Virus record (IMG/VR): IMGVR_UViG_3300021426_000003
Span: 39,151 to 103,150 of that record
Origin: a virus
DNA length: 64,000 bases
Direction: 5' to 3' (one strand)
How positions within the stretch are numbered: position 1 is the first letter of the stretch; every line of letters starts with the position of its first letter. A program made the position numbers and the translations under genes. The notes under the pieces were generated by a model. The model was not told the DNA's origin. It worked only from the letters and a program-made list of their open reading frames with translations, and did not search any database. This document shows positions 8,291 to 63,627 of the stretch, piece by piece.

Positions 8291-8622
8291 TTAGATACCT
8301 CTTGTATTTTATCTACTAGCGAGTGGGCATCTAGGATACATTTTCTATAATTATGATAATTAAAAGGATTCTGCTTTGTTTCTCTATATGCTGTCTGCAA
8401 TAAACAAGTAATCTCTACAATCTGTGGAGGATAGAAGAGTAGTTCATTTAAACTGTCTATCTCTTGCATTAAAGAAACAAAATATTTATTAAAATCTACA
8501 TTAGGATATTCATTTATTTTTTTAGGGTCTTTATATAGAATTAACCAATGAATTTTACTATGTAGTTGTTTTTTAAATTGTTCAAACTGCTCATCACTAA
8601 AGTGACCATATAAATATTTCAT
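8287..8622 (-). CDS. hypothetical head-tail protein
   Basis: ORF 8287-8661; the ATG at 8620-8622 has a GAGGTGAG RBS and avoids overlap with the upstream gene. Confidence 0.45.
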   Translation of the reverse strand: MKYLYGHFSDEQFEQFKKQLHSKIHWLILYKDPKKINEYPNVDFNKYFVSLMQEIDSLNELLFYPPQIVEITCLLQTAYRETKQNPFNYHNYRKCILDAHSLVDKIQEVSN

Positions 8623-23531: not shown

Positions 23532-26213
23532 TTAAATATTATTTACTTCTTTGTTTTTGATATTTTTTGAGAAACATTCTAAAAACTGCTTTGAATTTAA
23601 TTCATATAAAGTCTTTAATAATAATGGTCTATTTTTATTTAAGTTTGTTTTTATTGGTCTACCTTTATGTTTTACTTTAGAAGATGTATTAAAAGCCCTA
23701 TTGATTAAATAAGACATTAATCCTAAATACTTTTTAGTAAAAGTTATTTGTTTTATATCTTCAATTAATTGGTCAAAATCAGAATTGAGTAATAAATAAT
23801 CTTCTTCATTTTCAGTGTCATCAATTTCATTATTTTTATTATAATTAAAAATCCTCAATGAATATTTATTTATTAGTTCTTCAACTTTTCTACTCTTAGT
23901 TTTACTAATATCTAATTCATAAGTATTTAAAAATTTATCTATAGAATAAGTAGAAGAATTAGTACTTATTCTTGGATTAATATTCATATTATACAAAGAA
24001 TTCATTGGACATTTTATTTCTGAATTATACATTGAATTTCTTCTTTCAATCTGTTTATCAGTTAATTCAGATAACTTAACACCATTACGTTTATCATTTT
24101 TCTTTTTAATTGCTTTCCAGAAAATAGGATACCCATTCGTATTAATATTCATATCACGTTGAATTCTGTCTATTTCTTCTGAAATATTTATATTATATGT
24201 ACGTTTACTATTGTCAATTGCAGCCTGAGCTATAACTGATAATATACATACATAATCTGTAAATTTTTTGTCTAAATAAGAATAAGAATATGATAATGCC
24301 AATTGCGCTAAATTTGAAGAACCACCTATATCCCCCTGACTAGCAGCCAATTTATTATCTATTTTAGCAAAATCTTCTAATGAATTTGTATAAATATTTT
24401 TTTCTTTAGGAATATTATTTACAATCGTGGGATAATTTTGAATACAATATTTAGCATGAACTACGATATCTGATTGATTTGTTGTATATATTGAATCGCT
24501 ATCCTGATCACTACCATTGTTTCTATCTTGAAAATCTGTACCAATCATATTAATAGCTATACAATTTTTTCCAATATTAAAATATTTTTCCAATCTCCAA
24601 TCATAATGATTATGTAAATATCCTAAATTATTACGACTATTAAAAGGATTTCTAAATTCTGCAAGATATTCATTATCTTCAAATCTTTCCGTATAACATT
24701 GTATACATCCGTCTTCGTGTTCAAATGTTGGGTCAGATTCTGGGTCTTCTCCAACAGTATATAATAACATCGCAAAAGGAGAACCGACTATTGTAAGATT
24801 ATCTCCATTATTAATTATTCTCCCCATTTTAGCATTGGCTATATAGCTTTGAATTATTCTATCTCGTCTATCTTTAAAATAAGAGCATTGTTCAAATTCA
24901 GAATCCTGTTTAATTAATGCAATCAATACTTCAAAATCATTTGAAAAATTTGCATTTCTTTTTAAATAGTCTAAAAAAACATTTATATTGTTTTTTAATT
25001 GATAAATATAATCCTTGGTACATTGAACCGCACCTTCGATAGTGTTTATATCTAAAGCATTCACCATCTGATAAGACTGATATTGAACATTGCCAAGCTT
25101 ACTTGGATGAGCAGTTTTAACAATTCCAAACCAATTATCGTTATCCTGTTTAACTCGCTTGCACCAATACTCATAAGTAATACCATTAAATTTTATCCAC
25201 TTAATAGCGTTATCTGTAGTTACCATTTTAATATCAGTAACTTTATGTTCATTACCCCACATGTCTTTAATCACTGCATTTTCATATTCATCTCCATAAT
25301 AATCTTTAAACCATTGTTGAAGATAACAATCAAAAGCAGCCGCTTTAAACATATGTTGTCTCAAAAGAATATAACCATTTCCCCATGTTGGAAATAAACT
25401 ATGGTCAATTAATGCTTGTCCATCAAATAAAACATTGCCCAATTTATAATTCTCTTTTTTAACAGCTTGACAATGACCTTTATCATCAAGTTCTATACTA
25501 ATTGCGCTTCCTAAAAAAGATGATTCAACATCTTTTAATATTAATATATCCTTTGGGTCAATCTTAACTTTCCCGACAATAGAAGAAGCAACCAATGAAG
25601 AATAAGCTCCGATTTCAACAATGGGAGCATTTTCTTTTGGGAGCTGAATTCCCATATATAAATAATCCCTTGCAATATCATAAAGTTCCTCACGAATAAA
25701 CATACATGAGCCAGTTTTGGCTTTACCAGTAGAGCGGAAGAGCATTTTATAATGTATCTTTTCTGTATCAGTTATTTTGCCTTTTTTACTATATACATTA
25801 TAAAAAATATCTACTCCCTGAGTATAATAAAGAATTCTAAGCTGGTCTTTTGTATATCTTACAAATTTATCTTTATTATCTTCGGCTTTAGATTTTAAAG
25901 AATTTAAAAAATCAATCTTTTGTTGTTTTTGCTCTTCAGATATTTTTTTATCTTTTTCATATGATTTAATTCGTTTATTTAAATGAGCAATTTCTTCTTC
26001 ATAAGTACGGCTACCATATTTAAAAGTAATACAAATTATATCTCTAGTTGATTCACCCTTATAAACATCCAATCCATGCGCTACCATATAATCTTTAAAA
26101 AGGCTGTTAATCAACATAGCTTCAGTAATATCATATCTATCACGCACTCCTATATTTTTTTCCATAATTGAGCCAGCTGCAAAATTATTAATGCGTAATC
26201 CAAACTCTGACAT
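23532..26213 (-). CDS. large hypothetical protein (893 aa)
   Basis: Uninterrupted ORF with a strong RBS; no Walker A or polymerase motifs recognised; last gene of the desulfurase/radical-SAM transcription unit. Confidence 0.55.
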   Translation of the reverse strand: MSEFGLRINNFAAGSIMEKNIGVRDRYDITEAMLINSLFKDYMVAHGLDVYKGESTRDIICITFKYGSRTYEEEIAHLNKRIKSYEKDKKISEEQKQQKIDFLNSLKSKAEDNKDKFVRYTKDQLRILYYTQGVDIFYNVYSKKGKITDTEKIHYKMLFRSTGKAKTGSCMFIREELYDIARDYLYMGIQLPKENAPIVEIGAYSSLVASSIVGKVKIDPKDILILKDVESSFLGSAISIELDDKGHCQAVKKENYKLGNVLFDGQALIDHSLFPTWGNGYILLRQHMFKAAAFDCYLQQWFKDYYGDEYENAVIKDMWGNEHKVTDIKMVTTDNAIKWIKFNGITYEYWCKRVKQDNDNWFGIVKTAHPSKLGNVQYQSYQMVNALDINTIEGAVQCTKDYIYQLKNNINVFLDYLKRNANFSNDFEVLIALIKQDSEFEQCSYFKDRRDRIIQSYIANAKMGRIINNGDNLTIVGSPFAMLLYTVGEDPESDPTFEHEDGCIQCYTERFEDNEYLAEFRNPFNSRNNLGYLHNHYDWRLEKYFNIGKNCIAINMIGTDFQDRNNGSDQDSDSIYTTNQSDIVVHAKYCIQNYPTIVNNIPKEKNIYTNSLEDFAKIDNKLAASQGDIGGSSNLAQLALSYSYSYLDKKFTDYVCILSVIAQAAIDNSKRTYNINISEEIDRIQRDMNINTNGYPIFWKAIKKKNDKRNGVKLSELTDKQIERRNSMYNSEIKCPMNSLYNMNINPRISTNSSTYSIDKFLNTYELDISKTKSRKVEELINKYSLRIFNYNKNNEIDDTENEEDYLLLNSDFDQLIEDIKQITFTKKYLGLMSYLINRAFNTSSKVKHKGRPIKTNLNKNRPLLLKTLYELNSKQFLECFSKNIKNKEVNNI

Positions 26214-34440: not shown

Positions 34441-34761
34441 TTATTCATCTTCATCTTCATCTTCGTAATCTTCATCTTCATCCATGAACATACTGTATTC
34501 TTTTTTTGTAGGAACTATATCTTCTGTACCATCTTTCTTTTTTCTTACTCTGAATATTACTGTTGATTTATCTTCGGGGAAAACCAGAAGGTCTAATGCG
34601 TTTACTGGTTCTTTTGGCTGCTTACCCAGACGAAAAGGATAAAGAGCACAATCTGTGTCTAAACATTTCTTTACTTCTTTGGTTGTAATTGAACACTGTC
34701 TGCATTTAGCAATAATTGCTGTTCTGTAAGTAAGTTTCTTAAAAGGTTTTGTTTCTGTCAT
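34441..34761 (-). CDS. hypothetical protein with a poly-acidic C-terminus
   Basis: 106 aa ending DEDEDYEDEDEDE; starts MTETK with the same first 19 nt as the next gene. Confidence 0.4.
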   Translation of the reverse strand: MTETKPFKKLTYRTAIIAKCRQCSITTKEVKKCLDTDCALYPFRLGKQPKEPVNALDLLVFPEDKSTVIFRVRKKKDGTEDIVPTKKEYSMFMDEDEDYEDEDEDE

Positions 34762-34768
34762 TTTTATA

Positions 34769-35293
34769 TTACTCCTCTTCAGTGTATGCTTTTATTTCTG
34801 TAACTTCGCAATAACCATTATCTTCAAAATCTAAATCCATTACTAAACCAAAAGAATCATATTGGTCATTTTCATTAATAACACAATATACATTTGTTAC
34901 CATATATTTATTTTCTAAAGGTATATCATTTATAGTATTGATTTTTACAAATTTTATAATATATTCAAAATCATTTCTGTTAAAAAATTCATTTTGTTTG
35001 AATAATTTTATTAATTCATCATATGCAATTTTGAAGGTAGGATATTTTTTTGCTTCTTTAAGTGTTCCAACTTCATTAGGAGCAGAACATATTTTATTTC
35101 CGAAACAATCTATTTTACTTGTTGTATTATTACCATCATAAAAACCATCATCTCTCCATTTTTCATTATAATCAAGAATTATATATTTGTATTTTCCACC
35201 TTCTTGAGGAGGTTCATCAAGCCATTCTTCAATAAAACCAAATACATAAAAACTCTGCATGTTTTGTTTTTTTAAAAGTTTTGTTTCTGTCAT
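34769..35293 (-). CDS. hypothetical protein
   Basis: 174 aa; start MTETK duplicated; coupled to the nucleotidyltransferase gene. Confidence 0.45.
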   Translation of the reverse strand: MTETKLLKKQNMQSFYVFGFIEEWLDEPPQEGGKYKYIILDYNEKWRDDGFYDGNNTTSKIDCFGNKICSAPNEVGTLKEAKKYPTFKIAYDELIKLFKQNEFFNRNDFEYIIKFVKINTINDIPLENKYMVTNVYCVINENDQYDSFGLVMDLDFEDNGYCEVTEIKAYTEEE

Positions 35294-36324
35294 TAAACTA
35301 CTCCTTCCTGATATAATACAGTTAAATTGGCATCATATAAAAAATCATTAATTCGTTTATAATCAGGGTTATCTGGAAGAGGAGAGTGGTCTTTTAAATA
35401 ATTTAATTTATTTTCCATCTCATCAACAATATCATAAAACTCTTTAGTAGGTTGTTTATCATCATCCAAATACTTACCATTTCTAATATCCATTAGGAAA
35501 TCATGTTCTTTTTTTCTATATGTAATAATCTTACCGTCTTCAAGAATATCAAAGCACATAAGATATAATCTAATAAGATGCATCATATGTTTGCTTAACT
35601 TATCATGCTCAATGGCTTTTGAATTACGTCTTCCAATTTTAGAATAATCTTTAACAATATTCTGCATCTCTGACCACATAGATTTATAATCCCTAAGTGG
35701 ATAATGTTTTAAATTTATATCCATAAAAATTTCTGTATCATAATCTTCTTGGATAGCTTTATCAATATAAAGCTTAATAGAATCTTCTGGATAATTAAAA
35801 TATTTATCTGGATAAGAATATCTTGCATTTTCAATACTTGCTAAAATATGTTTTTCTCTTTGCTCCTGTTCTACTGTACGAACAGCTTTATTAGATAATC
35901 TTCGAAGTTGTGCAGTAGCATAACCACCGAATGAATGGGCAGCTCTTTTAGATAGAAACATATCTTTATTTTTAATAAGCTCTTGACCAATATAACCTGT
36001 ATATAAATACTGCCAAGGTTCAAGACCTAAAATTTCAATTGTATTAGGATTACAATTGGAAAGAAGATTAACAATCTTTTCAAGAGAATAAACAGTTGTA
36101 TCAGTAGCTTCATTAACAACCTGTTCAAAACCTTTTCTTGTAAGAATATCTTCTGAATTATGAGTAGCCACACCTCTGATATCCAAATCACTGTTTTCAG
36201 TATTAGTGCCATAAGCATAGCTGCCACCAAGTCCTAATAGAATAATATTGTTGCCCAATGGTTTTTCTTTTAAAAAACTGTATTCAGAAGAAGCAATTTT
36301 ATTTTTAATTTCTTCAATTGTCAT
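35293..36324 (-). CDS. Pol-beta-superfamily nucleotidyltransferase
   Basis: GLGGSYAYGTNTENSDLDIRGV matches the hG[GS]-x9-13-Dh[DE]h NTase signature; 343 aa with a helical C-terminal domain. Confidence 0.6.
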   Translation of the reverse strand: MTIEEIKNKIASSEYSFLKEKPLGNNIILLGLGGSYAYGTNTENSDLDIRGVATHNSEDILTRKGFEQVVNEATDTTVYSLEKIVNLLSNCNPNTIEILGLEPWQYLYTGYIGQELIKNKDMFLSKRAAHSFGGYATAQLRRLSNKAVRTVEQEQREKHILASIENARYSYPDKYFNYPEDSIKLYIDKAIQEDYDTEIFMDINLKHYPLRDYKSMWSEMQNIVKDYSKIGRRNSKAIEHDKLSKHMMHLIRLYLMCFDILEDGKIITYRKKEHDFLMDIRNGKYLDDDKQPTKEFYDIVDEMENKLNYLKDHSPLPDNPDYKRINDFLYDANLTVLYQEGVV

Positions 36325-36444
36325 TTAAATACATCCTCCGCATTCTCCATAACGCCAATCCTGTGAATTGATTGCTGTATAAATTTCTTTTTGAATAATA
36401 AGGTCTGTTGAAATTTTATTTAACCATTCTTTATTTTCTTTAAT

Positions 36445-36657
36445 TCATTCATCACAGAATAAACCCTCTTCATATGAATCCCATACTTCCTGCCAGTTTA
36501 CAAAATGCCAAGACCTATATGTATTATATGTATTCATTGGTTCATTTCTTAATTCGTTTGGAATTAAATAAGAAACATCTTTATTATTTACTTTTAAAAT
36601 CCATCGACCCGAACAAAGATTAGGATAATCACCTGTCCATTTAGCTTCTACTTTCAT
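36445..36657 (-). CDS. hypothetical small Trp-rich protein
   Basis: 70-aa ORF. Confidence 0.35.
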   Translation of the reverse strand: MKVEAKWTGDYPNLCSGRWILKVNNKDVSYLIPNELRNEPMNTYNTYRSWHFVNWQEVWDSYEEGLFCDE

Positions 36658-36878
36658 CTTGTAACCTTTCTTATAACTATTTGATTATCTATATCAATAT
36701 TGGCTTCACATGTAGTATCTAAACAATCTTTTCTACAATGAGAGTATAATGGTAATCTATCTTCTTTAGGAAGAATAATATTTAAAATTATATCCCTTTC
36801 ATTTGGACATGAGTTTAAATAATACATCTTATCTTTAACTTGTTTTGCAATTTTTCTTCTTAATTTCTTTTTATCCAA
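36654..36878 (-). CDS. hypothetical small Cys-containing protein
   Basis: 74-aa ORF, coupled. Confidence 0.35.
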   Translation of the reverse strand: MDKKKLRRKIAKQVKDKMYYLNSCPNERDIILNIILPKEDRLPLYSHCRKDCLDTTCEANIDIDNQIVIRKVTR

Positions 36879-37332
36879 TTGTTGTAAACCTCCAAAGGTA
36901 TCTATAAATTTTAGAAATTATATTATTTAATTCTTCCTTTGTATTTTTATATATAAACAATTTATCTATTTCCTCTTTATACCAAGGATGAAGAGAAGAA
37001 TAATTTTCTTCTGGAATCATACCTATAATTGGTTTATTTAATGTATATGCATACATCATTTCCTGAGCAGTACCAATAGAAGAGAATGAATTAAAATTAA
37101 TTATTATTATATCTGAGTGTTTAATCCAATAGAGGTCATATTTCATTGCTTCTTTTTCGTATAATTGGTCTGAGTTATTTGAAGGTGTATATAAATATGT
37201 TGGGTCTATAAAAATAAAACCATTACCTTCGTGTACATTTTCCAATTTAAATCCTGTTCTCCAATAAGAAGCTTCTTCTTCTGTTAAACCTGTCATTCCT
37301 CCACTAAGAAAGACTTTTAATTTATCTGACAT
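36871..37332 (-). CDS. nucleoside 2-deoxyribosyltransferase-like protein
   Basis: VFLSGG ... SIGTAQEMMYAYTLNKPIIG matches the SGT-x-E-x-G-x-A-x-x-KP signature of the NDT/DNPH1 family. Confidence 0.55.
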   Translation of the reverse strand: MSDKLKVFLSGGMTGLTEEEASYWRTGFKLENVHEGNGFIFIDPTYLYTPSNNSDQLYEKEAMKYDLYWIKHSDIIIINFNSFSSIGTAQEMMYAYTLNKPIIGMIPEENYSSLHPWYKEEIDKLFIYKNTKEELNNIISKIYRYLWRFTTIG

Positions 37333-37489
37333 ATTTATTTGTTCCCTTTCTTTTACAAAAATCTACACAGTCATATTTAATTGAATAATAAATTAAATAA
37401 AAGAGAGCAGTAATAAAATATTTCGATATTTTTGTTTGCAGAGCAAAGTCTGAATAATTTTTATAAAGTACTGTATATTTATATCCCAT

Positions 37490-37855
37490 TTAAACCTCCT
37501 CTGGATATTCTTGATATTGGACTGTAAATAATTTTGTTGTTGATGGCTCTTCATGATATTCAAATGTGAATTGAGTATCATATAAAAATGATTGTACATT
37601 GTTAATTACAATTTCTTTTTTATTTATTTCAATATTATATTTACATATATCATCATGAGTAAAAGACAAGTATGCATTACGATGAGTAAATGTACAATCA
37701 TGAAAAATTATTTCTGAATAATGTGTCCTGTGGTTTTTATCAATAAAGGGAATATTATAAAAAATAATCATATAATGCTGAACATTTTTTTTTGATTTAC
37801 GAGTTGAAATAATTTTAATTTTAGTTGCTTTGGGAAGTAAGTTAGTATTTATCAT
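37490..37855 (-). CDS. hypothetical protein
   Basis: 121-aa ORF; the overlapping 37393-37599 ORF is less likely. Confidence 0.35.
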   Translation of the reverse strand: MINTNLLPKATKIKIISTRKSKKNVQHYMIIFYNIPFIDKNHRTHYSEIIFHDCTFTHRNAYLSFTHDDICKYNIEINKKEIVINNVQSFLYDTQFTFEYHEEPSTTKLFTVQYQEYPEEV

Positions 37856-37867
37856 ATTAATCCTTTT

Positions 37868-38158
37868 TTAAAAACAAATATAAATAATGAAAGTTACTAC
37901 TACTGAAACAAGAAACAGGATATAAAAAAATACTCTAATTTTTTCTATAGCCTGAAAGAGAGCAGTGAGTTCTTCCTTATAATAATAATGTTCTGAATAT
38001 GATGGGGAGTTTGTATTAATTTCCCAAATACTAAGATTAATATAAGAAAAAATTTCTGCTATAGCTAGGATAAGCAATGTTGTTATGGTGGATAAAAATT
38101 TTAAGTTCATGTGTACCCCCTCCTGAGGTATGTGATTTGTGGTGCGGTTGGTTAACAT
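37868..38158 (-). CDS. small membrane protein
   Basis: 96 aa with two hydrophobic helices; last gene of the minus-strand block. Confidence 0.4.
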   Translation of the reverse strand: MLTNRTTNHIPQEGVHMNLKFLSTITTLLILAIAEIFSYINLSIWEINTNSPSYSEHYYYKEELTALFQAIEKIRVFFYILFLVSVVVTFIIYICF

Positions 38159-38227
38159 TTATAAACATGTAAATAATATACATGATTTAATTATATGGGT
38201 TTAATCGGAAAAGTCAAGAGGATAGGA

Positions 38228-38312
38228 AAGAATATAGTAAAGAATATAGTAAGAAGAATATAAAATATTTAATGTGGATAAAGTGGATAGAGTGGATAAG
38301 TTTGTGGATAAG
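38228..38312. promoter_or_regulatory. origin-like element: tandem 12-bp repeats plus four DnaA-box-like 9-mers
   Basis: AAGAATATAGTAA twice (38228-38252); TGTGGATAA (38274-38282 and 38304-38312, the exact reverse complement of TTATCCACA) plus GTGGATAG and GTGGATAAG, all in one orientation about 10 bp apart. Confidence 0.5.
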
Positions 38313-38697
38313 TTAGAGAAATTTAAAAGAATTTTAAAGAAATTGACGAAAAGATAGGCGAGAATTGGGAGATGGGGGATTGAGTGATTAAATATGTAAA
38401 AATAATTAGTGTTGTGTGGTTTAAGGGGCGACCCGGTCGCTAAAAAAATCCTTTATTTATCAGGTTTTTCCTACCCCGGTACGGATCATTTTTACTCCTC
38501 AATTTTGACTTCCAAAAATCCGTATTTTTGGCACTTTTCGAGGATCGCTGCGCTGGAAAAAACGAACAGATGTACGAATTTGCCTCAAAATCCCAATTTT
38601 GCCACTATGCGACCAGCTCGTTCGAGTGGCACGGACGGGCACACACACAGACATGCCACACAAGCCACGGCGCTAAAGCGCAGAGAGGAGAAAAATC

Positions 38698-39270
38698 ATG
38701 GCAAACAAGAACACAGGCAACACACAGGTACAGGCAATCGCAATCGCACAGGCAATGGCAATCACGCAAGCTATGCTTGCGTTGGATGCGTATCGGACAT
38801 CGCTCCTCGCGTATGCAGATGCGGACGCACATGAGGATCGTGAGCGCATGAGCATGTACGCATCACTCGGCAAGGGCGAGCGCAAGGCAGTGTGGAACGC
38901 ACTTGTGAAAGCGGGCTTTCCCGTAGGGAAAGCTGTGCTTCCCAAGACCGAAGCAGCAGCGCCTGCGCCCAAGCAGTCACAGACTCCTACGGAACGTGCT
39001 GGTGAGGTGTGCATGTGGGTACGTGATGGCGCATACGTGAGCACTGCCACCGCAGGTGGCAAGTTCGTTGGTCGCAGTGGAATCCGCAAGATTCTCAACG
39101 CTCGCATCCGTAAGGCGGGTGGCACATACGACAAGGCGCACAAGGCGTACAAGTTCCCGAACGAGCAGAACGCCATTGACTTCGTCAATGCTACATCCGC
39201 TACGGTCACGGACGAGCAGTTCCGTGAGTACATGGGCACACTGGAGCGCAAGCACAATGAGAAGGCGTAA
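38698..39270 (+). CDS. hypothetical protein encoded by a GC-rich foreign cassette (190 aa, Ala/Lys-rich)
   Basis: AGAGGAGAAAAATCATG RBS; about 60% GC versus about 30% in the flanks; followed by a strong terminator; upstream TTGACT with a TCCAAAAAT/ATTTTTGGA palindrome. Confidence 0.55.
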   Translation: MANKNTGNTQVQAIAIAQAMAITQAMLALDAYRTSLLAYADADAHEDRERMSMYASLGKGERKAVWNALVKAGFPVGKAVLPKTEAAAPAPKQSQTPTERAGEVCMWVRDGAYVSTATAGGKFVGRSGIRKILNARIRKAGGTYDKAHKAYKFPNEQNAIDFVNATSATVTDEQFREYMGTLERKHNEKA

Positions 39271-39284
39271 GCCTTCTCGAGGTT

Positions 39285-39322
39285 CACAGTCGGGCTTCGG
39301 CTCGGCTGTGATCCTTTTTTTT
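39285..39322 (+). terminator. intrinsic terminator with a UUCG tetraloop
   Basis: 11-bp stem CACAGTCGGGC/GCTCGGCTGTG (two G-U pairs) with a TTCG loop, then ATCC and T8. Confidence 0.7.
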
Positions 39323-40340
39323 GTGCCTTTGAGCCCCTTGTTGATCATATGCTTATCGAAATTTTGTATAAGCATGTGATGAATAAGGGCTTCAAAAAAA
39401 CGCCCTATATGCATATACGAATCAGATAATATCGCATATGTCTGGTGTTGCAAGTCACCAATCATTTCTACTTGCGTTTTTCAAAATCGGGTCGGTCAGT
39501 ACTCGTTAACCACTGACAAAGAATAAAACCGTTATAATCGAAGGCTTTTATGTCAGCTACCTACACCGTAACGGTTACATATTGCAAAATGTATTGTGTT
39601 ATAACAATGCTCAATCAAAAAAAGAGCCAAGGACACAAATATGTCTCCAATATTTGTGATTGCAAAAACATGCACAATTCAACTTTAGAAATCTTAAGTG
39701 CCTTAAAGGTAGGTGATAGATTGCTAAGTGTATGAATATCCTGCTCAAAGAAAGGAGGTGAGAGCGATATAACACAATCCATAACATTGCAAGTTGACGA
39801 TTGGTCGGAATCAATCAATCCCTTTAGGATTTGTCCTTGTGAATGTTATTCTTGCCGTATGTACTTCCGTTAGAGAGGCATGGGTCAAAAGACTGGCGAT
39901 TAGTCGAAGGTGACAAGGGAGTAGGAGCTCCACTCGGTTATAGTCCTTCCGCAAGATAGTCAGAATGGCTTGGCACAACTTACCAAGGCTGACTGATAAA
40001 GGGGCGGTACTACAAAAGTGACCGAGAATAAAAAATAACAGGCGACTGGACAAACCTGTTATCAAACTGGCATCTGTTGAGACTAAAACTAAAAATTAGA
40101 CTCAACTGCGTATACTTAGTAACTCGCAAGGGTAAGTACCTTGGGGAGCAAAGACGCACAGTAAGGAATAAGTCCACTAAACAATTGATTTATTCGGCAG
40201 ATGAATAAAGATATATGTAATAAAAACATATATATAATAAAACACCTAATGAATAATAAAATTGCTCTTATGGCTTGTGTGTCTTTCTTGTCAAGGGGAT
40301 AGAGTAGCGGTTGCAATAAGTACATACAAGTACATTGTTG

Positions 40341-40365
40341 ACTTGTCCAATATACTTGTCCAATG
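40341..40365. promoter_or_regulatory. tandem 11-bp direct repeats (operator-like) next to a TTGACT -35-like hexamer
   Basis: ACTTGTCCAAT at 40341-40351 and again at 40355-40365; AAGTACAT is also duplicated just upstream. Confidence 0.4.
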
Positions 40366-40717
40366 TATGTATTGCGTCAACTCAGTATATCGTGAGGATG
40401 TCAGCGGTAGTGTTAAGTGGTGCATTAATATTAATTAATTATTCCACTTGCGAAGGTCTATTGACTGACACGAGGTCGCAGGAAGTACCTGCATAAATCC
40501 TAAATCACACTTATTCAGGTTGTGATTGTAGAACGAGCAATTGATTAACAGTCAATTGTCTATTGTGGCTTAACTACCCACATTAACGAGTAGGTGCAAC
40601 TCCTACCACAACCTCTTAACTATTAATAATGATTGCAATTCTCGTTATAAATCGAGGTGCTAACATCCAACTTATGACGTAGTCCCAATCATCAACAACC
40701 ATGAAAGGAGTAACACA

Positions 40718-41149
40718 ATGAACAAAAAAGACAGAGCACTCGTAAACAGGGCAGAGCATGAAGATATGGATTATATCACACCTATTAGGTCTTTAGACGT
40801 CCTTATTTTTAGGAATTTATCTAAAAAGGCTTTTGGTATCCAATTCTGCAATCGCAGAGCGACCAAAGATGCCTTAGTATTTGACCTTACTGGAAGCCCT
40901 GCGGATATCCGTAAGGGTATTAAGTATGTTGAATATTTAGGTATTACACCTGTGTATGATAACCGCCCTATTATGAGAGAGGGCAGGACATACAACCTGT
41001 TTGTTGACGAAGGTGAATGGGTGGTGACACGAGTTGATATTGATGAAGAAACATTGACAGAATCGTATACATGCGTACATGAAATGGCTCTTCTCGAAAA
41101 TTACGACGATGACTTCATCTGTGAAGAAGCAATATGTGAAGTACTCTGA
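40718..41149 (+). CDS. hypothetical protein (first gene of the plus-strand early block)
   Basis: AAAGGAG RBS; 143 aa; GC about 40%. Confidence 0.5.
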   Translation: MNKKDRALVNRAEHEDMDYITPIRSLDVLIFRNLSKKAFGIQFCNRRATKDALVFDLTGSPADIRKGIKYVEYLGITPVYDNRPIMREGRTYNLFVDEGEWVVTRVDIDEETLTESYTCVHEMALLENYDDDFICEEAICEVL

Positions 41150-41164
41150 AAGGAAATAAATAAA

Positions 41165-41353
41165 ATGTATGATATGATTAACGGTTTTTACCTTGAAACT
41201 GGATATGGATTTAATCCTCATACCAGTACAGTAACAGAAATAAAAAAAGTTGACGAGTTCGGCAGATTTGTTATGGGAGCAATGGTATATAGAGGCGAAT
41301 GGGAAGACTGTATTAAATATGCTGAAACCCACGAAAGTCCTTTAAATAAATAA
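41165..41353 (+). CDS. hypothetical small protein
   Basis: 62-aa ORF after the AAGGAAATAAAT module. Confidence 0.4.
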   Translation: MYDMINGFYLETGYGFNPHTSTVTEIKKVDEFGRFVMGAMVYRGEWEDCIKYAETHESPLNK

Positions 41354-41711
41354 TTATAAAATACAACGAAAGGAAATAAATGCCTATGGAAAATGACTGT
41401 AACTCGTTGTCACATGCAAACTGTTCTAGTCTCACATCCCCAAGCATCATTCTTTAATGGGTAGACAAAGCGTAGGAACATTTATTATTCCTGCGCTTCA
41501 ATGTACCTATTAATAGCTCAAATAGGGAAATAAATCCCAGAAAGGAGAGATATGAATTATAGTCCTATTCCCAATCCCGAAACTAATTTGGACTGGTTCA
41601 ACATCAAGGGAACTCAAGTTGGTTAATAATATATATAAATATATTAATCGACTCAATAAGGCAAATAAATTTGACCCTCAAAAAAGGAAACAAATCTCAG
41701 AAAGGAGCAAT

Positions 41712-41882
41712 ATGAACAAAGAAACAGTAGAAAGAATCAATAAGGCAAATGAAATTGCACAGTTCTTTGAAGAATGTGCAAAGATTTCTCGCAAAGAGGG
41801 AAATATTAAACTTGCCCTTATTCAAGAACGCAGAGCGAAAGAACACAGACAGAACGCTATGCGCTATGCGAAAGACAAATAA
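41712..41882 (+). CDS. hypothetical small basic protein
   Basis: ATG at 41712 with a CAGAAAGGAG RBS; the longer track ORF (41619) would need a TTG start. Confidence 0.4.
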   Translation: MNKETVERINKANEIAQFFEECAKISRKEGNIKLALIQERRAKEHRQNAMRYAKDK

Positions 41883-41909
41883 ATAAAGGAAACAGAAAGG
41901 AGTAACACT

Positions 41910-42155
41910 ATGGCTAAAGCAAATTCAGATTACATCGAAATCTACCACATTACTGGTATGAAGAATCTTCAGAAAGCATACAAGTATATAATGGAATACT
42001 GTGTAAGTAACGATGAAGGTAAGGTCTCTTACAGAAGCGAATTCTCTGCAAGAGAAACCGCTTTCACCGAGTACTACATTGCAGTTTACTGCAACGTAGT
42101 ACGCCACATGCGTCTGTGCGAGTATTTAGAAAATATTTGCGCAGACTGGAATTGA
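41910..42155 (+). CDS. hypothetical protein
   Basis: AAAGGAG RBS; 81 aa. Confidence 0.5.
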   Translation: MAKANSDYIEIYHITGMKNLQKAYKYIMEYCVSNDEGKVSYRSEFSARETAFTEYYIAVYCNVVRHMRLCEYLENICADWN

Positions 42156-42264
42156 CTTAGTGGACAGATAGGGGAGCAGAGAAACAATTCTCCGCTCTCC
42201 GATTGTGTCTATTAAGGCACGATTAACTATTAACCACTAACAGAAATAAAAGAAAGGAATAATT

Positions 42265-42486
42265 ATGATTAAAGTACAGACATTTCCCTCAATCGCTCCC
42301 ATGTGGATTCTTGTTACATATGACGAGAAAGGAAACAAAAAGTGTGAAGACCATTGTGTTGACCGTCTTCATTTAATTGGTACAGCATACTCTTACAACA
42401 GAGTACGTCCTGACCAGACATATGTAATCAAAGCAGACCTTCCCGAAGTATACAATTCTTTTGCAGAATATGAAGTCATTGCTTAA
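42265..42486 (+). CDS. hypothetical small protein
   Basis: AAAGGAA RBS; 73 aa. Confidence 0.45.
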   Translation: MIKVQTFPSIAPMWILVTYDEKGNKKCEDHCVDRLHLIGTAYSYNRVRPDQTYVIKADLPEVYNSFAEYEVIA

Positions 42487-42619
42487 TTAGTCCCCAGATA
42501 GGGATGTGTAGTAGGCAAATAAAATAAATAGCCAGATAACTATGCATCCCGATTGTGAGGGTTAAATTAATTACTCACTTGTAACTATCAATAAAGCAAA
42601 CAAAAAAAGGAGGTAAACC

Positions 42620-43600
42620 ATGAGTCCCGAAACAGAAAGAAAGCTCATGAAAGAAGCTCGAACTTTCTCCGATGCAGGAAATTTCTGGGCATGGGCTTAC
42701 ACCGATTACGGGCTTTCTACTACAGAAGCAGATGTAATTTGGCGTAACGCTAATTGGAAATTCAAATATCTCATTTGCGAATCTCGCAAGGGATATGAGA
42801 ATAGAATGTTCATCCGAGATGTAAGCAACACTTGGGATGATGGTCTTAAAAAGAAAGGGTGGTGGAATACCTTTACCCTATCTACTCGTCCTGTTACAGA
42901 AGGACTTTGGCTCTGCAACGTAGACCATTATAGGATTGACAGCAACGGATACATGAATCTAATCGTTAATCCGTTAGTCGAAATGCCAGAAGTGAAATTC
43001 CAGTTCAGCGCATGGGAAAAGAGCGAAGGAACATGGAATTCTCCTGCTTTTCATCTTATGTTTAATGGTAACAGAAAATGGTTACCCGAATATAAGTTCC
43101 CTCAATTCAAACAGGGAAATATAAAAGAATTTGTTTCTCGTTTTCCTCGTTACACATATGAAGATTATTATGGATATGAATACATGTGTGACCTTCTTTT
43201 AATGGATTACATTAAAGGAGATATTTCTCTTGAAGAGATTGAATCTGCTTTAAATGAACCCACAGACCATGAGAAGTTCGTTAGACAAATTCAATTAGCA
43301 GTGGCAAAAGGGAAAACAAAAGAGATGTTCCCTAATCATCCTTTGTTTGCAGAAAAAATCTGTCGTTCCGAAAACAGTGCTTCTCATCTTTTAGGTGATG
43401 AATACATTGGTTTTAGAGAAATAAAAGATTATGTAGAAAGAAATCTGCGTAGTTATGAACAACTGGTTAAAGAAGAAAAAATGAATGCCATTGATTCTTC
43501 TGATGACCTTGACAAAATTGAAGCTGTTCTTGCTTACAGAAAAGAAGTCAAGAAAACTGAAAAATTGGCAAAGAGAAATAAAAGAAAGGAAGGTAAATAA
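42620..43600 (+). CDS. hypothetical protein (326 aa)
   Basis: AAAAGGAGG RBS; long ORF. Confidence 0.55.
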   Translation: MSPETERKLMKEARTFSDAGNFWAWAYTDYGLSTTEADVIWRNANWKFKYLICESRKGYENRMFIRDVSNTWDDGLKKKGWWNTFTLSTRPVTEGLWLCNVDHYRIDSNGYMNLIVNPLVEMPEVKFQFSAWEKSEGTWNSPAFHLMFNGNRKWLPEYKFPQFKQGNIKEFVSRFPRYTYEDYYGYEYMCDLLLMDYIKGDISLEEIESALNEPTDHEKFVRQIQLAVAKGKTKEMFPNHPLFAEKICRSENSASHLLGDEYIGFREIKDYVERNLRSYEQLVKEEKMNAIDSSDDLDKIEAVLAYRKEVKKTEKLAKRNKRKEGK

Positions 43601-43716
43601 TGGAAATTATTGTAGATATGGCTACAAACGCAGTTCCGTTCTGCATTGTAATCGCCTATTTTTTAACAGGCATTTACTTGTTAATAAGCTGGAGCAGAGA
43701 GGATAAAGAAAAATGA
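43600..43716 (+). CDS. small single-TM peptide (38 aa)
   Basis: ATG overlaps the upstream stop (TAATGG) and has an AAGGAAGG RBS; hydrophobic core VPFCIVIAYFLTGIYLLI. Confidence 0.35.
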   Translation: MEIIVDMATNAVPFCIVIAYFLTGIYLLISWSREDKEK

Positions 43717-44021
43717 AAAATAAAGATAAAATTTACCTCATTTGTCTCTGTCTCATCTGTATGGCAATCATTATTTTAGGTTGTCACTATGAAGCAACCT
43801 ATGTAGCAAAATGTAAAGTAATTTCTAAAACAGAAACAACTCTGGAAGTAGAGAATCTTCACAACCATGTATGTTATGAATGTGAAGCAACAGAAACAGA
43901 AACAATTCATATTGATGAAATACTTTGTTGTAAATTCACCAACGAATGCACTGAGTCCGACCCATATGATGACCATTGGGTTAATTTTGGAGAGCACAGT
44001 TTCTTGTGCTTCGTTTGGTAA
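43713..44021 (+). CDS. membrane-anchored Cys-rich small protein
   Basis: N-terminal TM (IYLICLCLICMAIIILG) and 8 Cys in the ectodomain. Confidence 0.45.
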   Translation: MKNKDKIYLICLCLICMAIIILGCHYEATYVAKCKVISKTETTLEVENLHNHVCYECEATETETIHIDEILCCKFTNECTESDPYDDHWVNFGEHSFLCFVW

Positions 44022-44048
44022 TAAGTTAAACAGAAAGGAGAACTAATC

Positions 44049-44231
44049 ATGTATAAATTCGTTTACACCCGTTGCAACAGAGAAACGGGTGAGGTTCAGA
44101 AACTGGTAGAAGCCCGCTACCACAACTATGAAACCTGTATAAGGGAAGAATATTATTATTATTCCCATCTTGACCATAACAAGTATAGTGGTCATGCAAC
44201 TATTTCATATATCAGCAATATCAGCAGATAA
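44049..44231 (+). CDS. hypothetical small protein
   Basis: AAAGGAG RBS; 60 aa. Confidence 0.4.
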   Translation: MYKFVYTRCNRETGEVQKLVEARYHNYETCIREEYYYYSHLDHNKYSGHATISYISNISR

Positions 44232-44246
44232 GAAAGGAGAAACAAA

Positions 44247-44570
44247 ATGTCACTCTACTTCGACCTTCAGAAACATTTCATTAGCAACTATCACAAGGGA
44301 ATTTATCCCGACATGGAAACCGCTAGACTTGCTTTTGAAGCATATTGGAAAACATTAGAAATATATGCGTGGGAAGCATATAAGACATTACAGGACAAAT
44401 ACGGAAAGGGAAGTGGAATTGTTTCTGTTCCCACCGTTCTTGAAACAATCAAATTTATAACAGAAGCAAATGATGAATATATTATGGAAGTCTATCAGGT
44501 AATGATTATGCCCAAGACAGAATACCATGAATATATTACAGAGAAGCAAGGAGGAGGTGTTGTATTATGA
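44247..44570 (+). CDS. hypothetical protein
   Basis: AAAGGAG RBS; 107 aa. Confidence 0.5.
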   Translation: MSLYFDLQKHFISNYHKGIYPDMETARLAFEAYWKTLEIYAWEAYKTLQDKYGKGSGIVSVPTVLETIKFITEANDEYIMEVYQVMIMPKTEYHEYITEKQGGGVVL

Positions 44571-44749
44571 CAGAAGAATTAAAAAGGGAAATCATTTCCA
44601 AACTTCAATCTGAAATTTCAACGGACGAAGAGATTGAATCTCTTCATCTGCCCTATGACGATGACCATAGTTATGCATATGGTCAGAGGGCAGGACTGGA
44701 ACATGCAATAGAAATCATTGAAAGCGTTTTCAATGATTTTGGTTATTAA
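44567..44749 (+). CDS. hypothetical small acidic protein
   Basis: ATGA overlap with the upstream gene; 60 aa. Confidence 0.4.
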   Translation: MTEELKREIISKLQSEISTDEEIESLHLPYDDDHSYAYGQRAGLEHAIEIIESVFNDFGY

Positions 44750-44769
44750 GAAAAGAAAGGAGCAACACT

Positions 44770-44907
44770 ATGACAACAAAAGAATTCGCAATCGCAAAGG
44801 TAAACGAATACACAATCCTTAAGAAAGCGGCACTTGCGGTTGAAGATTATTTCCTCGCAGAATACTACGACACTTTAATCAAGGAAACTCTTGCAGAGAT
44901 TAAATAA
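44770..44907 (+). CDS. hypothetical small protein (45 aa)
   Basis: AAAGGAG RBS; below the ORF-track cutoff. Confidence 0.35.
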   Translation: MTTKEFAIAKVNEYTILKKAALAVEDYFLAEYYDTLIKETLAEIK

Positions 44908-45010
44908 TCTCTAATAGGGAAAATAGGGAAATAAATAAAAATTAAATATTGAAAAAACTAAATATAGGTAAATAAAATAAAGCAAAGTTTTAAGAAAGGA
45001 AGTAACTATC

Positions 45011-45640
45011 ATGACTAACAACACAATCACAATCAACTCCGCAATCGACATGAACTCTCTTATGTCTCTTCTTAAAGATAATAAAGCAACCATTATCATC
45101 ATCAATAATAATGGTACACCTATGAATATGAGTAATGTGTTTGACACTACAGCAACGGAAGTAAAGAAAGGACGTACTTTTGACCCGCATAAGTATTATG
45201 CAGGAAATGTTAGAAAAATTCTCAGTAATCATGACATTCAGATTAAGGCTGGTAAAGGGTGCAAAAGAGGTCACATCAGCGCAGGAGCATTTGACGAACT
45301 GGTCAATCAGCTTGAGACAAAGGAAGTAACACTTAGAAGAGTTAAATTCCTTTTCAATGCTCTTGACGAAGCAGGGTATAAAGAAGAGGGGAGAGGTCTT
45401 AAAAAGGATGTACTGTTTGAAACCTTGAGTTACATCAAGGAAAATAATCTTGCGGTAACCTACAAAGGAAAAGGAGAGAACAGTCACTCAAGAGGAAATG
45501 CCCAAAAAGAAAGATATGAACTCGACAACCTTGTAGAAAGGTTGGTAAAGATTCCCTTTACCAATGACTTTGCAGAGAAGTTCGCCACCTGTTTGAGAGA
45601 GGGAGATGAAGTTGTACATGCAACCTTCAAACTTGCATAA
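45011..45640 (+). CDS. hypothetical protein (209 aa)
   Basis: AAAGGAAG RBS; preceded by the AGGGAAAATAGGGAAATAAAT module. Confidence 0.5.
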   Translation: MTNNTITINSAIDMNSLMSLLKDNKATIIIINNNGTPMNMSNVFDTTATEVKKGRTFDPHKYYAGNVRKILSNHDIQIKAGKGCKRGHISAGAFDELVNQLETKEVTLRRVKFLFNALDEAGYKEEGRGLKKDVLFETLSYIKENNLAVTYKGKGENSHSRGNAQKERYELDNLVERLVKIPFTNDFAEKFATCLREGDEVVHATFKLA

Positions 45641-62081: not shown

Positions 62082-62632
62082 AAATTAAAGAATATAAATT
62101 AATATCTAAAGAAAAAAATGGAACTTTTCCTCAATTAGAATGTATTGTAGAGCATGAAGTAATATATGATGATGTTTATTTACAATTTTATAATGATAAT
62201 TATGAATTTGAATATATGTTTTTTGGAGACACTTTAAAGCTTCAAAATAATTATACCGAATTCTATTATGTAATGTCATATGATGAATTAAATAATCCAA
62301 TCGGTATTATACAGATATCTTCTGGAGGAAGAGATAAAACAGTAATTCCACTTGAAATTGTTTTTAGTTTTTTATTATTAACAGGAGGAAAATCTTTTAT
62401 TACTATTCATAATCATCCTAATAATAATTCAGATAAATCATATGAAGATATATCAAGTGATAATATTATAAAAAATTTAGCAGAAATGTTGAAAATTGAT
62501 TATAAAAAAGGATTAATTATAACAAAAGAAATAATGGAGGAGTTACATCAAAAAATGTACACATTTATGAAAGAATCAATAAATGATGATGATTTACCAA
62601 CATATGAAGAATGGATAACAATGGAGGAGTAA
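62078..62632 (+). CDS. RadC-like JAB/MPN-domain protein
   Basis: ITIHNHPNNNSDKSYED fits the JAMM H-x-H-x7-S-x2-D motif. Confidence 0.65.
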   Translation: MKIKEYKLISKEKNGTFPQLECIVEHEVIYDDVYLQFYNDNYEFEYMFFGDTLKLQNNYTEFYYVMSYDELNNPIGIIQISSGGRDKTVIPLEIVFSFLLLTGGKSFITIHNHPNNNSDKSYEDISSDNIIKNLAEMLKIDYKKGLIITKEIMEELHQKMYTFMKESINDDDLPTYEEWITMEE

Positions 62633-62634
62633 TA

Positions 62635-63627
62635 ATGAGTGGCAGAAATGATCATGAAATTAGAACAAATAATAATATTGAATGTATATTGAAAGAAAAA
62701 CCAGATAGTTTAAAAAAATATTATTTAAAAATACGGACAACTAAAGAACCATTAACTTGTCTTGAATATATAAGAAAAATTAGTTCTTTTTTTGATTATG
62801 TAAATAAAGATGTAAATAATATTACAGTAAAAGATATCGATGATTATATGAATTCCATTTATTATATTAAAAATAACAAAAATGAACAAAAAAGGTCATC
62901 CAGCTCTTATAGGCAATCAGTTTATTCTGCATTAAATTCCTTTTTTGGATATTTGTATTCAAGAGGCGAAATTGAAAAAAATCCAATGCTTGAAATTGAA
63001 CGTCCAAAAAGTACAGACCATGTTATTAGAAAAGCTTTAGATATAAATGATTTTAATAATATTTTAACTGTTATAAAAAAAGGAGTTGGTTCAGATAGAG
63101 CAAAAGCCAAACAAAAAAGATGGGTTGAAAGAGATTTGCTCATTATGTATTTATTTATGAATACAGGGATGAGAAAAACTGCTTTAAGTGAAATCAATAT
63201 TGAAGATATTGATTTTGAATCTAAAACTCTAACAGTAATTGATAAAAGAAACAAAAAACTAGAGTATAATATAACTAATGAATTGGAAGTTATAATTAAA
63301 AATTGGCTTATAAAAAGAGAAAAAATATTAAATGGTAAACAGTTAAATGCTTTATTTATTTCTGATAAAATGAATCGAATTAGTGAAAGAGCTATATATA
63401 ATTTAGTACAAAAATATTCAGAAGGTGCATTAGGATATGCAATTAGTCCTCATAAATTAAGAGCATCTTTTGTTACTATTTTTTATCAAGCCAGTGGTTG
63501 TGATATAAAAGCGACATGCGAAGCTGTTGGGCATTCTAATATTTCAACAACAAGCTTATATATCGTTAATAAAAATAATTCAAGAAAAAATGCTGCTAAT
63601 TATATGTCATCAAATTTAAAAATTTGA
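62635..63627 (+). CDS. tyrosine site-specific recombinase (XerD/phage-integrase family)
   Basis: C-terminal HKLRASFVTIFYQASGCDIKATCEAVGHSNISTTSLYI matches the H-x-LRH ... LGH-x-x-x-x-T-x-x-Y catalytic box; the ATG at 62635 has a GGAGG RBS. Confidence 0.8.
   Translation: MSGRNDHEIRTNNNIECILKEKPDSLKKYYLKIRTTKEPLTCLEYIRKISSFFDYVNKDVNNITVKDIDDYMNSIYYIKNNKNEQKRSSSSYRQSVYSALNSFFGYLYSRGEIEKNPMLEIERPKSTDHVIRKALDINDFNNILTVIKKGVGSDRAKAKQKRWVERDLLIMYLFMNTGMRKTALSEINIEDIDFESKTLTVIDKRNKKLEYNITNELEVIIKNWLIKREKILNGKQLNALFISDKMNRISERAIYNLVQKYSEGALGYAISPHKLRASFVTIFYQASGCDIKATCEAVGHSNISTTSLYIVNKNNSRKNAANYMSSNLKI

Follow-up and report, generated by a model that had tools for sequence, protein, structure and literature searches.

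The 64,000-nucleotide stretch of viral DNA analysed in this study (positions 39,151 to 103,150 of IMG/VR virus record IMGVR_UViG_3300021426_000003, hereafter the window) carries on its plus strand, at 38698-39270, a G+C-rich (GC-rich) gene for a protein of 190 amino acids (aa), which is followed by a large structured RNA candidate. We consider it somewhat better than an even chance that this gene is an old GC-rich allele residing in a conserved slot, that its lineage is tied to higher-GC elements, and that it entered the present phage by homologous replacement. The first-pass annotation, made from the letters of the window, had described the gene as a self-contained foreign cassette newly inserted between phage modules. 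The phages concerned apparently form an uncultivated rumen family that encodes a YonO/crAss-type RNA polymerase, and in them the gene opens what appears to be the early rightward block. Sheep and cattle rumen are suggested as the sample source by the record-name prefixes SHIW14, STEW18 and STEW19.

The slot is conserved throughout the related phages. At the switch from a leftward to a rightward block of genes, each relative has this gene as the first on the plus strand. The leftward block encodes the terminase, an 893-aa RNA polymerase-like protein, Aminotran_5 and RlaP, and the rightward block DUF932, GP88 and an integrase. The site is never empty, and a homologue was present in all relatives found, down to about 25% protein identity. 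The same position is held by family members P0030 and P0023 in contigs L012-L014, followed by a gene-free gap of 1.47-1.55 kb, and by P0032 in L015, followed by a gap of 1.35 kb. In L027 it is occupied by an open reading frame (ORF) of 163 aa, the N-terminus of which reads identical to P0021, and in L026 by a family member that is not catalogued. The same module was found with P0009 in L022, a 2.1-kb contig, and with P0013 in L031, a higher-GC element, and in both the DNA after the gene is noncoding to the contig end. Wherever a contig reaches the next gene, including L027 and L026, 1.35-1.55 kb of gene-free DNA lies 3' of the family gene, and a leader with a shared inverted repeat precedes the gene at all loci with context. 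A homologue at the same position in all relatives contradicts the proposal of a recent moron inserted into an empty site. The suggested search of relatives for an insertion scar gave none of the kind proposed; the left breakpoint, at about 38578, is sharp, and the right one is diffuse and falls within the RNA.

These breakpoints emerged from a comparison of the window (34500-45000) with L027 by BLAST. The two sequences are 98% identical over 34739-37494 and 96% identical over 37487-38578, and no identity is detectable over 38579-39461. Identity resumes at 71-75% in the 5' half of the RNA, rises to 82% in its 3' half, and reaches 93% further right. The segment without similarity to L027 is 53.5% GC and comprises the 3' part of the leader, the ORF, the terminator and a spacer hairpin. 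In its place L027 has the 163-aa family member at 48% GC, and P0021 is only 28% identical to the window protein. Since the segment 38579-39461 is swapped relative to a near-identical phage, the cassette is real as a unit of recombination. As judged from the sequences, alleles are shown to be exchanged among otherwise near-identical phages, with the left breakpoint in the window at about 38578. Because the slot always holds a homologue, the event is the replacement of one allele by another. It would have proceeded as homologous replacement through the conserved leader on the left and the RNA on the right, and not as the insertion of a new function. The alleles found at the slot differ widely in composition, from 35-36% GC in L012-L014, 41% in L026 (180 aa) and 46% in L015 to 57-60% in the window clade, 63% in L022 and 65% in L031. 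Of the autonomous, foreign-looking cassette first described, the ribosome-binding site, the terminator and the exchangeability stand; the promoter is unassigned, and insertion into an empty site does not hold. Likewise, the proposed recent acquisition from a high-GC donor survives as cassette exchange with probable higher-GC ancestry, and not as a new insertion.

Two contigs of about 3 kb were also found to be 100% identical to L016 over the cassette and to have different flanks, namely L018 (2655-3024) and L019 (1-1408). In L019 the beginning of the conserved leader abuts DNA of 56% GC, which holds a 382-aa ORF without Pfam match, and L018 departs directly past the terminator hairpin. They may be either real recombinants or chimeric.

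GC content in 200-nt windows lies at 0.20-0.30 as far as 38.3 kb and at 0.55-0.605 over 38.6-39.3 kb, bearing out the abrupt jump annotated at about 38.40 kb. The level assigned to the block at 38409-39322 was indeed high, but at 53.7% it falls short of the 60% first given; the whole window is 31.1% GC, the ORF 57.1%, and the untranslated leader at 38579-38697 53.8%. The drop expected after the terminator at 39.32 kb does not occur: GC remains at 0.33-0.46 until about 40.7 kb with no return to background, and it is still raised over this further 1.4 kb because the structured RNA is located there. Codon usage and sliding-window GC, both proposed as checks, reveal the ORF as an outlier at all three codon positions. 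Its GC content at third positions (GC3) is 0.64, against a mean of 0.204 (standard deviation 0.063, maximum 0.37) in the 67 other ORFs, and its values at first and second positions (GC1 and GC2) are 0.61 and 0.47, against maxima of 0.56 and 0.46. The codons it uses are AAG, GAG, CGC, GGC and GCG, whereas the structural genes of the phage favour T-ending codons. It had also been stated that every frame is open in the block; frames +0, -0 and -1 are long, and frames +2 and -2 hold 9-10 stops. GC3 of 0.29-0.37 was further observed in the early-block genes at 40718-45640, just 3' of the RNA, and is mostly below 0.28 in the leftward block, so that a composition gradient reaches past the single GC-rich gene.

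The 190-aa ORF is a genuine protein-coding gene under purifying selection. Among four diverged relatives, the variable columns in the plus-strand frame number 37, 28 and 95 at codon positions 1, 2 and 3, and the ratio of nonsynonymous to synonymous divergence (dN/dS) is 0.14-0.32 within the window clade. With third-position variation concentrated in this frame only, the choice of the plus-strand ORF as the true gene was correct. A conserved antisense gene (the 204-aa ORF at 38673-39287 on the minus strand) was ruled out, as the antisense ORFs are broken in relatives, spanning 66-218 codons in frame -1 and 117-233 in frame -0. The identical locus was assembled independently from ENA, Logan and JGI data, in at least four samples and in one case on a contig of 108 kb. 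Six further variants came from other samples, with ORF nucleotide identities of 79-86%, and the DNA on both sides of the GC-rich block is phage DNA with conserved gene order. A chimeric assembly, which had been named as a possible artefact, is ruled out by the independent assemblies from at least four samples together with the gene order shared by relatives, and a prophage-host junction is excluded by the same assemblies and the conservation of the locus.

The gene's closest relatives beyond the clade lie in higher-GC elements. Over its C-terminal domain the 190-aa protein is 40-48% identical to members P0009-P0014, which are Ala-rich or come from higher-GC contigs, and the corresponding figure for the low-GC members at its own position is 23-31%. 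In L031 the gene is 65% GC, the downstream noncoding DNA 51-58% and the rest of the element 50-58%, and L031 and the window have in common the leader motifs, the inverted repeat, a C/A-rich tract, and a UUCG-loop terminator with noncoding DNA behind it. GC3 lies at 0.64-0.68 in all eight GC-rich alleles, and alleles of this type that are only 40% identical in protein still have values near 0.65. Within the clade, synonymous divergence (dS) amounts to 0.5-0.8; between L022 and the window clade it exceeds 1.3, that is, saturation. By this divergence the GC-rich allele type is old. Polarised synonymous changes in the clade comprise 15 from GC to AT and 8 from AT to GC, while about 88% would be expected to run from GC to AT under neutral decay with the mutation bias of the genome (P = 0.004). 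The composition appears to be kept well above the mutational equilibrium of the phage. The gene lineage would have evolved in, or been shared with, higher-GC elements having the same module, such as L031, and we infer that the window has the GC-rich allele type because of this origin. We take ancestry to be the main cause of the GC-richness as far as the sequences tell, and either selection or repeated exchange with higher-GC elements must hold the composition. High GC is not required at the locus, since alleles of 35-48% GC occupy the same slot in sister phages. Ordinary codon optimisation was considered and rejected: the preference of the structural genes for T-ending codons is absent from the ORF, and Spearman rho is 0.35 overall and not significant within GC classes.

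The gene is preceded by a conserved leader. It starts with the motif AAAAATCCTTTATTTATCAGG (38444-38464, plus strand), which is invariant in the four-way alignment A3 and was also found in L022; the left junction of contig L019 falls at this motif. Further down lies an 8-bp inverted repeat, CCAAAAAT-ccgt-ATTTTTGG (38512-38531, plus strand), a candidate operator or hairpin element, which is located 133-258 nt 5' of the start codon in every allele type examined. Its arms in L022, CCGAAAAT/ATTTTCGG, are changed on both sides with the symmetry kept, and L012 has a G-T variant. The repeat had been annotated as a perfect palindrome, which is true of its 8+8 bp; the claimed ninth position is unpaired. 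The TTGACT hexamer reported to overlap it is present just 5' of it, at 38505-38510, and is without a -10 hexamer at sigma-70 spacing. As a recurring promoter motif the inverted repeat was rejected on account of its single occurrence in the window. The conserved leader with its inverted repeat suggests that transcription may be regulated. An imperfect inverted repeat, TCAAAAT-CCCA-ATTTTGC (38585-38602, plus strand), follows 73 nt past the first one, and in L001, L005 and L007 it overlaps a promoter-like TTGAC(C/T)-16-TA(A/T)TGT (alignment A3). The 5' leader also contains a C/A-rich, G-poor tract at 38637-38668 on the plus strand, with similar tracts in L022, L031 and L015. The ribosome-binding site is GGAG at 38687-38690, 7 nt 5' of the ATG, a proper site as annotated.

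The gene ends in an intrinsic terminator at 39284-39321 on the plus strand. A 12-pair stem with a TTCG loop (39284-39311) is followed by a T-run, and the UUCG-tetraloop terminator of the first-pass annotation is thus confirmed in all its parts. Alleles L021, L001, L016, L005, L007, L022, L027 and L031 each possess their own G+C-rich hairpin and T-run. L026 has no terminator hairpin within the 75 nt read past the stop codon, and in L012 and L015 a tRNA-like element stands in place of the terminator. The variable spacer between terminator and RNA holds an imperfect hairpin (39328-39396, plus strand) with 34-nt arms that are 79% complementary; L001, L005 and L007 do not share this spacer sequence with the window. 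Judging from its strong ribosome-binding site, its C/A-rich leader poor in G and its tetraloop terminator, the gene may give rise to a stable, heavily translated early message.

The large structured RNA candidate extends over 39478-40717 on the plus strand, up to the ribosome-binding site of the next gene, and is about 1.05-1.24 kb long with 38% GC. It is the best-conserved part of the region, with four-way identities of 78-96% over the first 700 nt or so and 64-92% beyond, compared with 56-86% for the 190-aa ORF and about 45-50% for the next ORF. Its variable columns show no codon periodicity (52/53/51). RNAalifold on seven variants predicted 348 pairs in 46 helices with 99.2% of cells paired. 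Changes on both sides of a pair were found in 29 pairs, compared with 0-4 when the 3' partners were slid by 1-3 columns (35-40% pairing) and 16.9 +/- 2.3 in column shuffles, where 0 of 500 reached the observed number. The plus strand is favoured (-287 against -227 kcal/mol), and the plus-strand fold breaks 259 cells on the minus strand because it is rich in G-U pairs. Three sequences outside the derivation of the fold were compared with it. In L022, which is 63% identical to alignment A5, 73% of the pairs are canonical (37-43% when slid), with 34 new both-side pairs kept and 20 broken; in L027 80% are canonical (32-40% when slid), with 16 kept and 7 broken; and in L029 95% are canonical (35-45% when slid), with 4 kept and 0 broken. 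The RNA is therefore conserved as a structure, since it has more compensatory changes than the controls and sequences from independent relatives agree with the fold. The fine structure is uncertain where a well-supported local hairpin, as an alternative, overlaps the predicted long-range closing helix. The RNA could also be an extremely long structured leader of the next gene rather than a free RNA.

Several elements within the RNA are invariant. A perfect Shine-Dalgarno-like (anti-16S) sequence, AAAGGAGGUGA (39751-39761, plus strand), is placed in a predicted hairpin loop (A5 columns 268-292); it is kept in L022, and GGAAAGTGAGGTGA is found at the same feature in L031. The loop may serve as a decoy for, or a contact with, the 3' end of 16S rRNA. 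A small ORF after it was rejected, as its start codon (A5 column 315) is not conserved. The 3' domain at 40518-40613 on the plus strand is cloverleaf-shaped (alignments A6 and A7) and contains the 33-nt core TGTGGCTTAACTACCCACATTAACGAGTAGGTG, which is identical in 12 of 12 variants. True tRNAs reach about 17 bits with model R1, which was built from this domain. At about 40317-40362 the window variant alone has a 23-nt tandem duplication (ACAAGTACATTGTTGACTTGTCC...), which is absent from the six relatives in A5 (columns 853-875).

Database searches with the RNA gave nothing similar. Rfam returned no match at gathering score over the whole window and none at E values up to 5 over 38200-42700. 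Neither blastn of the RNA against GenBank phages nor a scan of IMG/VR with two RNA motifs detected a similar sequence, and GTDB genomes scanned with the RNA motif gave no match, so that no host or prophage was identified. In the gap of L012 and L015, tRNA-like elements flank the RNA, at about 8499-8561 and 9694-9795 in L012 and just after 8495 in L015, the first of them directly after the stop codon of the gene. They consist of a 7-bp acceptor stem and a T-arm with a GGTTCAATTCC or GGTTCGATTCC loop. The Rfam tmRNA model gives weak hits at these elements, and ARAGORN calls nothing there. The elements hint that the gap RNA of L012 and L015 may be processed by tRNA-maturing enzymes.

GOLLD, ROOL and OLE RNAs are about 600-800 nt long, and OLE has protein partners, which are unrelated to the family of the 190-aa protein. 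The window RNA is like GOLLD (RF02032), ROOL and OLE in being very large, highly conserved and multi-helical and in belonging to phages of anaerobic gut or rumen bacteria. It is unlike them in its length of about 1.05-1.24 kb, in matching nothing in Rfam, and in having a dedicated protein gene that is always adjacent. GOLLD, ROOL and OLE form homo-oligomeric complexes (PMC12286853). An Rfam scan of the whole window did not find GOLLD, which is present in the distant relatives L012 (878-1331, minus strand) and L015 (434-894, minus strand) at 195-197 bits (gathering score 150), where it adjoins arrays of 4-5 tRNA genes and lies some 7 kb 5' of the family gene. Compared with tRNA and tmRNA, the 3' domain of the window RNA is alike in forming a four-way cloverleaf with a T-loop-like 7-nt loop in the last hairpin, and the gap of L012 and L015 is like tRNA in having clear mimics of T-arm plus acceptor at both ends. 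The domain of the window RNA differs in its non-canonical arm sizes, with no CCA after the closing stem and no tag reading frame identified, and neither ARAGORN nor the Rfam tRNA and tmRNA models made a call in 39.3-40.7 kb.

A search of every protein representative placed the 190-aa protein in a family of small proteins sharing 23-48% identity over the C-terminal 85 residues or so (alignments A4 and A8). The homologues were catalogued as P0001-P0045, with phmmer E-values from 1e-20 to 1e-4 for P0009-P0027. The N-terminus varies among members, a low-complexity linker connects it to a conserved C-terminal alpha/beta domain, and a basic tail is often present. In the window protein these are represented by an N-terminal helical hairpin, an Ala/Pro-rich linker and a C-terminal alpha/beta domain of about 85 aa. 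AlphaFold2, run on a 20-sequence alignment, predicted two long N-terminal helices, a disordered Ala/Pro-rich linker at residues 77-99, and a C-terminal domain (pLDDT 83-97) of the order beta-beta-alpha-beta-beta-alpha-alpha. Pfam, PHROGs and NCBIfam gave no match for the 190-aa protein and no significant one for 20 family members, and PDB sequence searches with two profiles matched nothing, in agreement with the earlier remark that the protein has no motif that can be placed. The profile of the C-terminal domain retrieved no fusions and no named proteins, only stand-alone proteins of 62-165 aa. There was likewise no match from tblastn of the 190-aa protein, P0030 and P0013 against GenBank phages and plasmids, from blastn of the cassette against GenBank phages, or from scans of IMG/VR with the protein and of JGI metagenomes with protein patterns. 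DUF5710 (PF18974) appeared as weak hits in 2 of 20 family members (E 0.049); no member reached its gathering score, and the 190-aa protein had no hit. A motif in the C-terminal domain, R-K-x-G-G-x-[WY]-D-x3-K-x-[WY]-x-F, presumably resembles DUF5710, and we take this as a lead only. To our knowledge, DUF5710 is without an established function. As no library matched, the function of the 190-aa protein was inferred from its context alone.

The context is the RNA. The protein gene and the noncoding DNA downstream are adjacent at all loci, across very deep divergence, and divergence in the 5' half of the RNA follows that of the protein allele: this half is alignable in L027 and not in L026. The joint divergence of the protein N-terminus and the RNA 5' half fits a protein that binds or assists the RNA. 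The likeliest function of the protein, although at well below even odds, is to bind nucleic acid in concert with the large RNA beside it, to which it may bind or which it may assist at the onset of infection. It is a bolder and rather improbable suggestion that the protein and the RNA of about 1.2 kb would constitute a phage ribonucleoprotein of a new class, made at the start of infection and engaging the translation or RNA-processing machinery of the host. On this suggestion, protein alleles and RNA 5' halves would form a co-evolving matched pair, which would explain why they are swapped jointly.

Several observations weigh against the reading of an old allele of higher-GC ancestry that works with its RNA. 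The polarised test rests on 23 changes, and the ratio of 15 to 8 also fits slow, parallel GC decay. GC as a mere trace of ancestry at dS above 1.3 requires selection or repeated import. The promoter scan found no plus-strand sigma-70-type site at the GC-rich gene. Physical linkage in one recombination tract can explain the joint divergence of the protein and the RNA 5' half. By nhmmer, the gap RNAs of L012 and L015 have no detectable sequence in common with the RNA of the window, and a covariance-model hit to these gap RNAs, at 19.7 bits, is no better than on ordinary tRNAs.

Morons, for example those of lambdoid phages, are promoter-gene-terminator units of atypical composition that are present or absent between genes adjacent in relatives. 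The window gene resembles them in its own ribosome-binding site, intrinsic terminator, atypical composition and sharp breakpoint relative to a near-identical phage, and differs from them in a slot that is always filled by a homologue and in having no assigned promoter. On the reading that it is a recently acquired moron, a foreign cassette between phage modules would encode an accessory anti-defence or host-takeover factor. The outlier composition at all three codon positions, the ribosome-binding site and terminator, and the cassette-like replacement relative to L027 agree with this, and a gene in an arms race could well have the hypervariable N-terminus and the frequent turnover of alleles seen here. 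The unit is also found with other flanks in L018 and L019, although these contigs of about 3 kb may be chimeric. We nevertheless judge it unlikely: the site is never empty, as every relative found has a homologue there, even at about 25% identity; alleles of the GC-rich type have diverged to dS above 1.3 with their GC retained; and the protein matched no defence or anti-defence families in the libraries searched, which included none dedicated to anti-defence.

Another explanation is that selection on the message itself, and not ancestry, keeps GC high, be it codon optimisation for very high expression, resistance to an AU-directed ribonuclease, or escape from an AT-binding silencer early in infection. 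It would account for GC3 holding steady at 0.64-0.68 across saturated synonymous divergence, for a substitution flux near balance and not strongly from GC to AT, and for the GC-richness of the untranslated leader (53.8%) and the terminator. However, alleles of 35-48% GC suffice at this slot in sister phages, highly expressed phage genes favour T-ending codons that the ORF does not use, and GC1 and GC2 are outliers too, which makes the amino-acid composition itself of GC type. We give this explanation a low probability. That the GC-rich block is no protein gene at all, and is instead part of the RNA, an antisense gene, an assembly artefact or a host fragment, is extremely improbable. Several long ORFs do overlap on both strands, and the composition is raised as in the adjacent RNA; yet substitutions concentrate at third positions of the plus-strand frame only with dN/dS below 1, the antisense ORFs are interrupted in relatives, the independent assemblies agree, and both flanks are phage DNA. 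We thus favour the old allele exchanged by homologous replacement.

The gene lies between the divergent modules beside a cluster of DnaA-box-like repeats, as first annotated. Where the leftward block gives way to the rightward one (38273-38311, plus strand), three GTGGATAA repeats are packed into 40 bp; they are conserved in L001, L005 and L007 (A3). The cluster was observed to coincide with the minimum of cumulative GC skew and with the point of divergent transcription, and it is a possible replication origin. A genome-wide enrichment of DnaA boxes was rejected (31 found against 26.9 expected); only the local clustering stands out. At the equivalent place L031 has an iteron-like region of 500 nt with 12-15% GC, as well as a ParB_N gene. 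The phage family may consist of phage-plasmids. A tyrosine recombinase (Phage_integrase with a SAM-like N-terminal domain) is encoded in the rightward block at 62611-63627 on the plus strand and suggests a temperate or plasmid-resolving lifestyle. The 893-aa protein (23532-26213, minus strand) has no Pfam hit and is 22-24% identical by tblastn to the 'RNA-dependent RNA polymerase' of Enterocloster phages and of Clostridium phage c-st; relatives L012 and L013 gave weak PF05183 hits. It is probably a single-subunit RNA polymerase of the YonO/crAss type.

A conspicuous island of high GC in an AT-rich phage does not have to be newly imported, and here it is best read as an old allele at a conserved early locus that recombines frequently. 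The locus joins an unannotated protein family to one of the largest conserved structured RNAs seen in phages, both known only from rumen and gut metagenomes. What is new is a previously undescribed structured RNA of about 1.2 kb and a protein family without library match, which together form one conserved module. With its length of about 1.1-1.2 kb, its 29 compensatory pairs and its invariant 3' cloverleaf, the RNA is a good candidate for structural work of the kind done on GOLLD, ROOL and OLE. If the protein and the RNA do cooperate, they would be a new phage ribonucleoprotein, and their variable alleles would represent a natural experiment in co-evolution.

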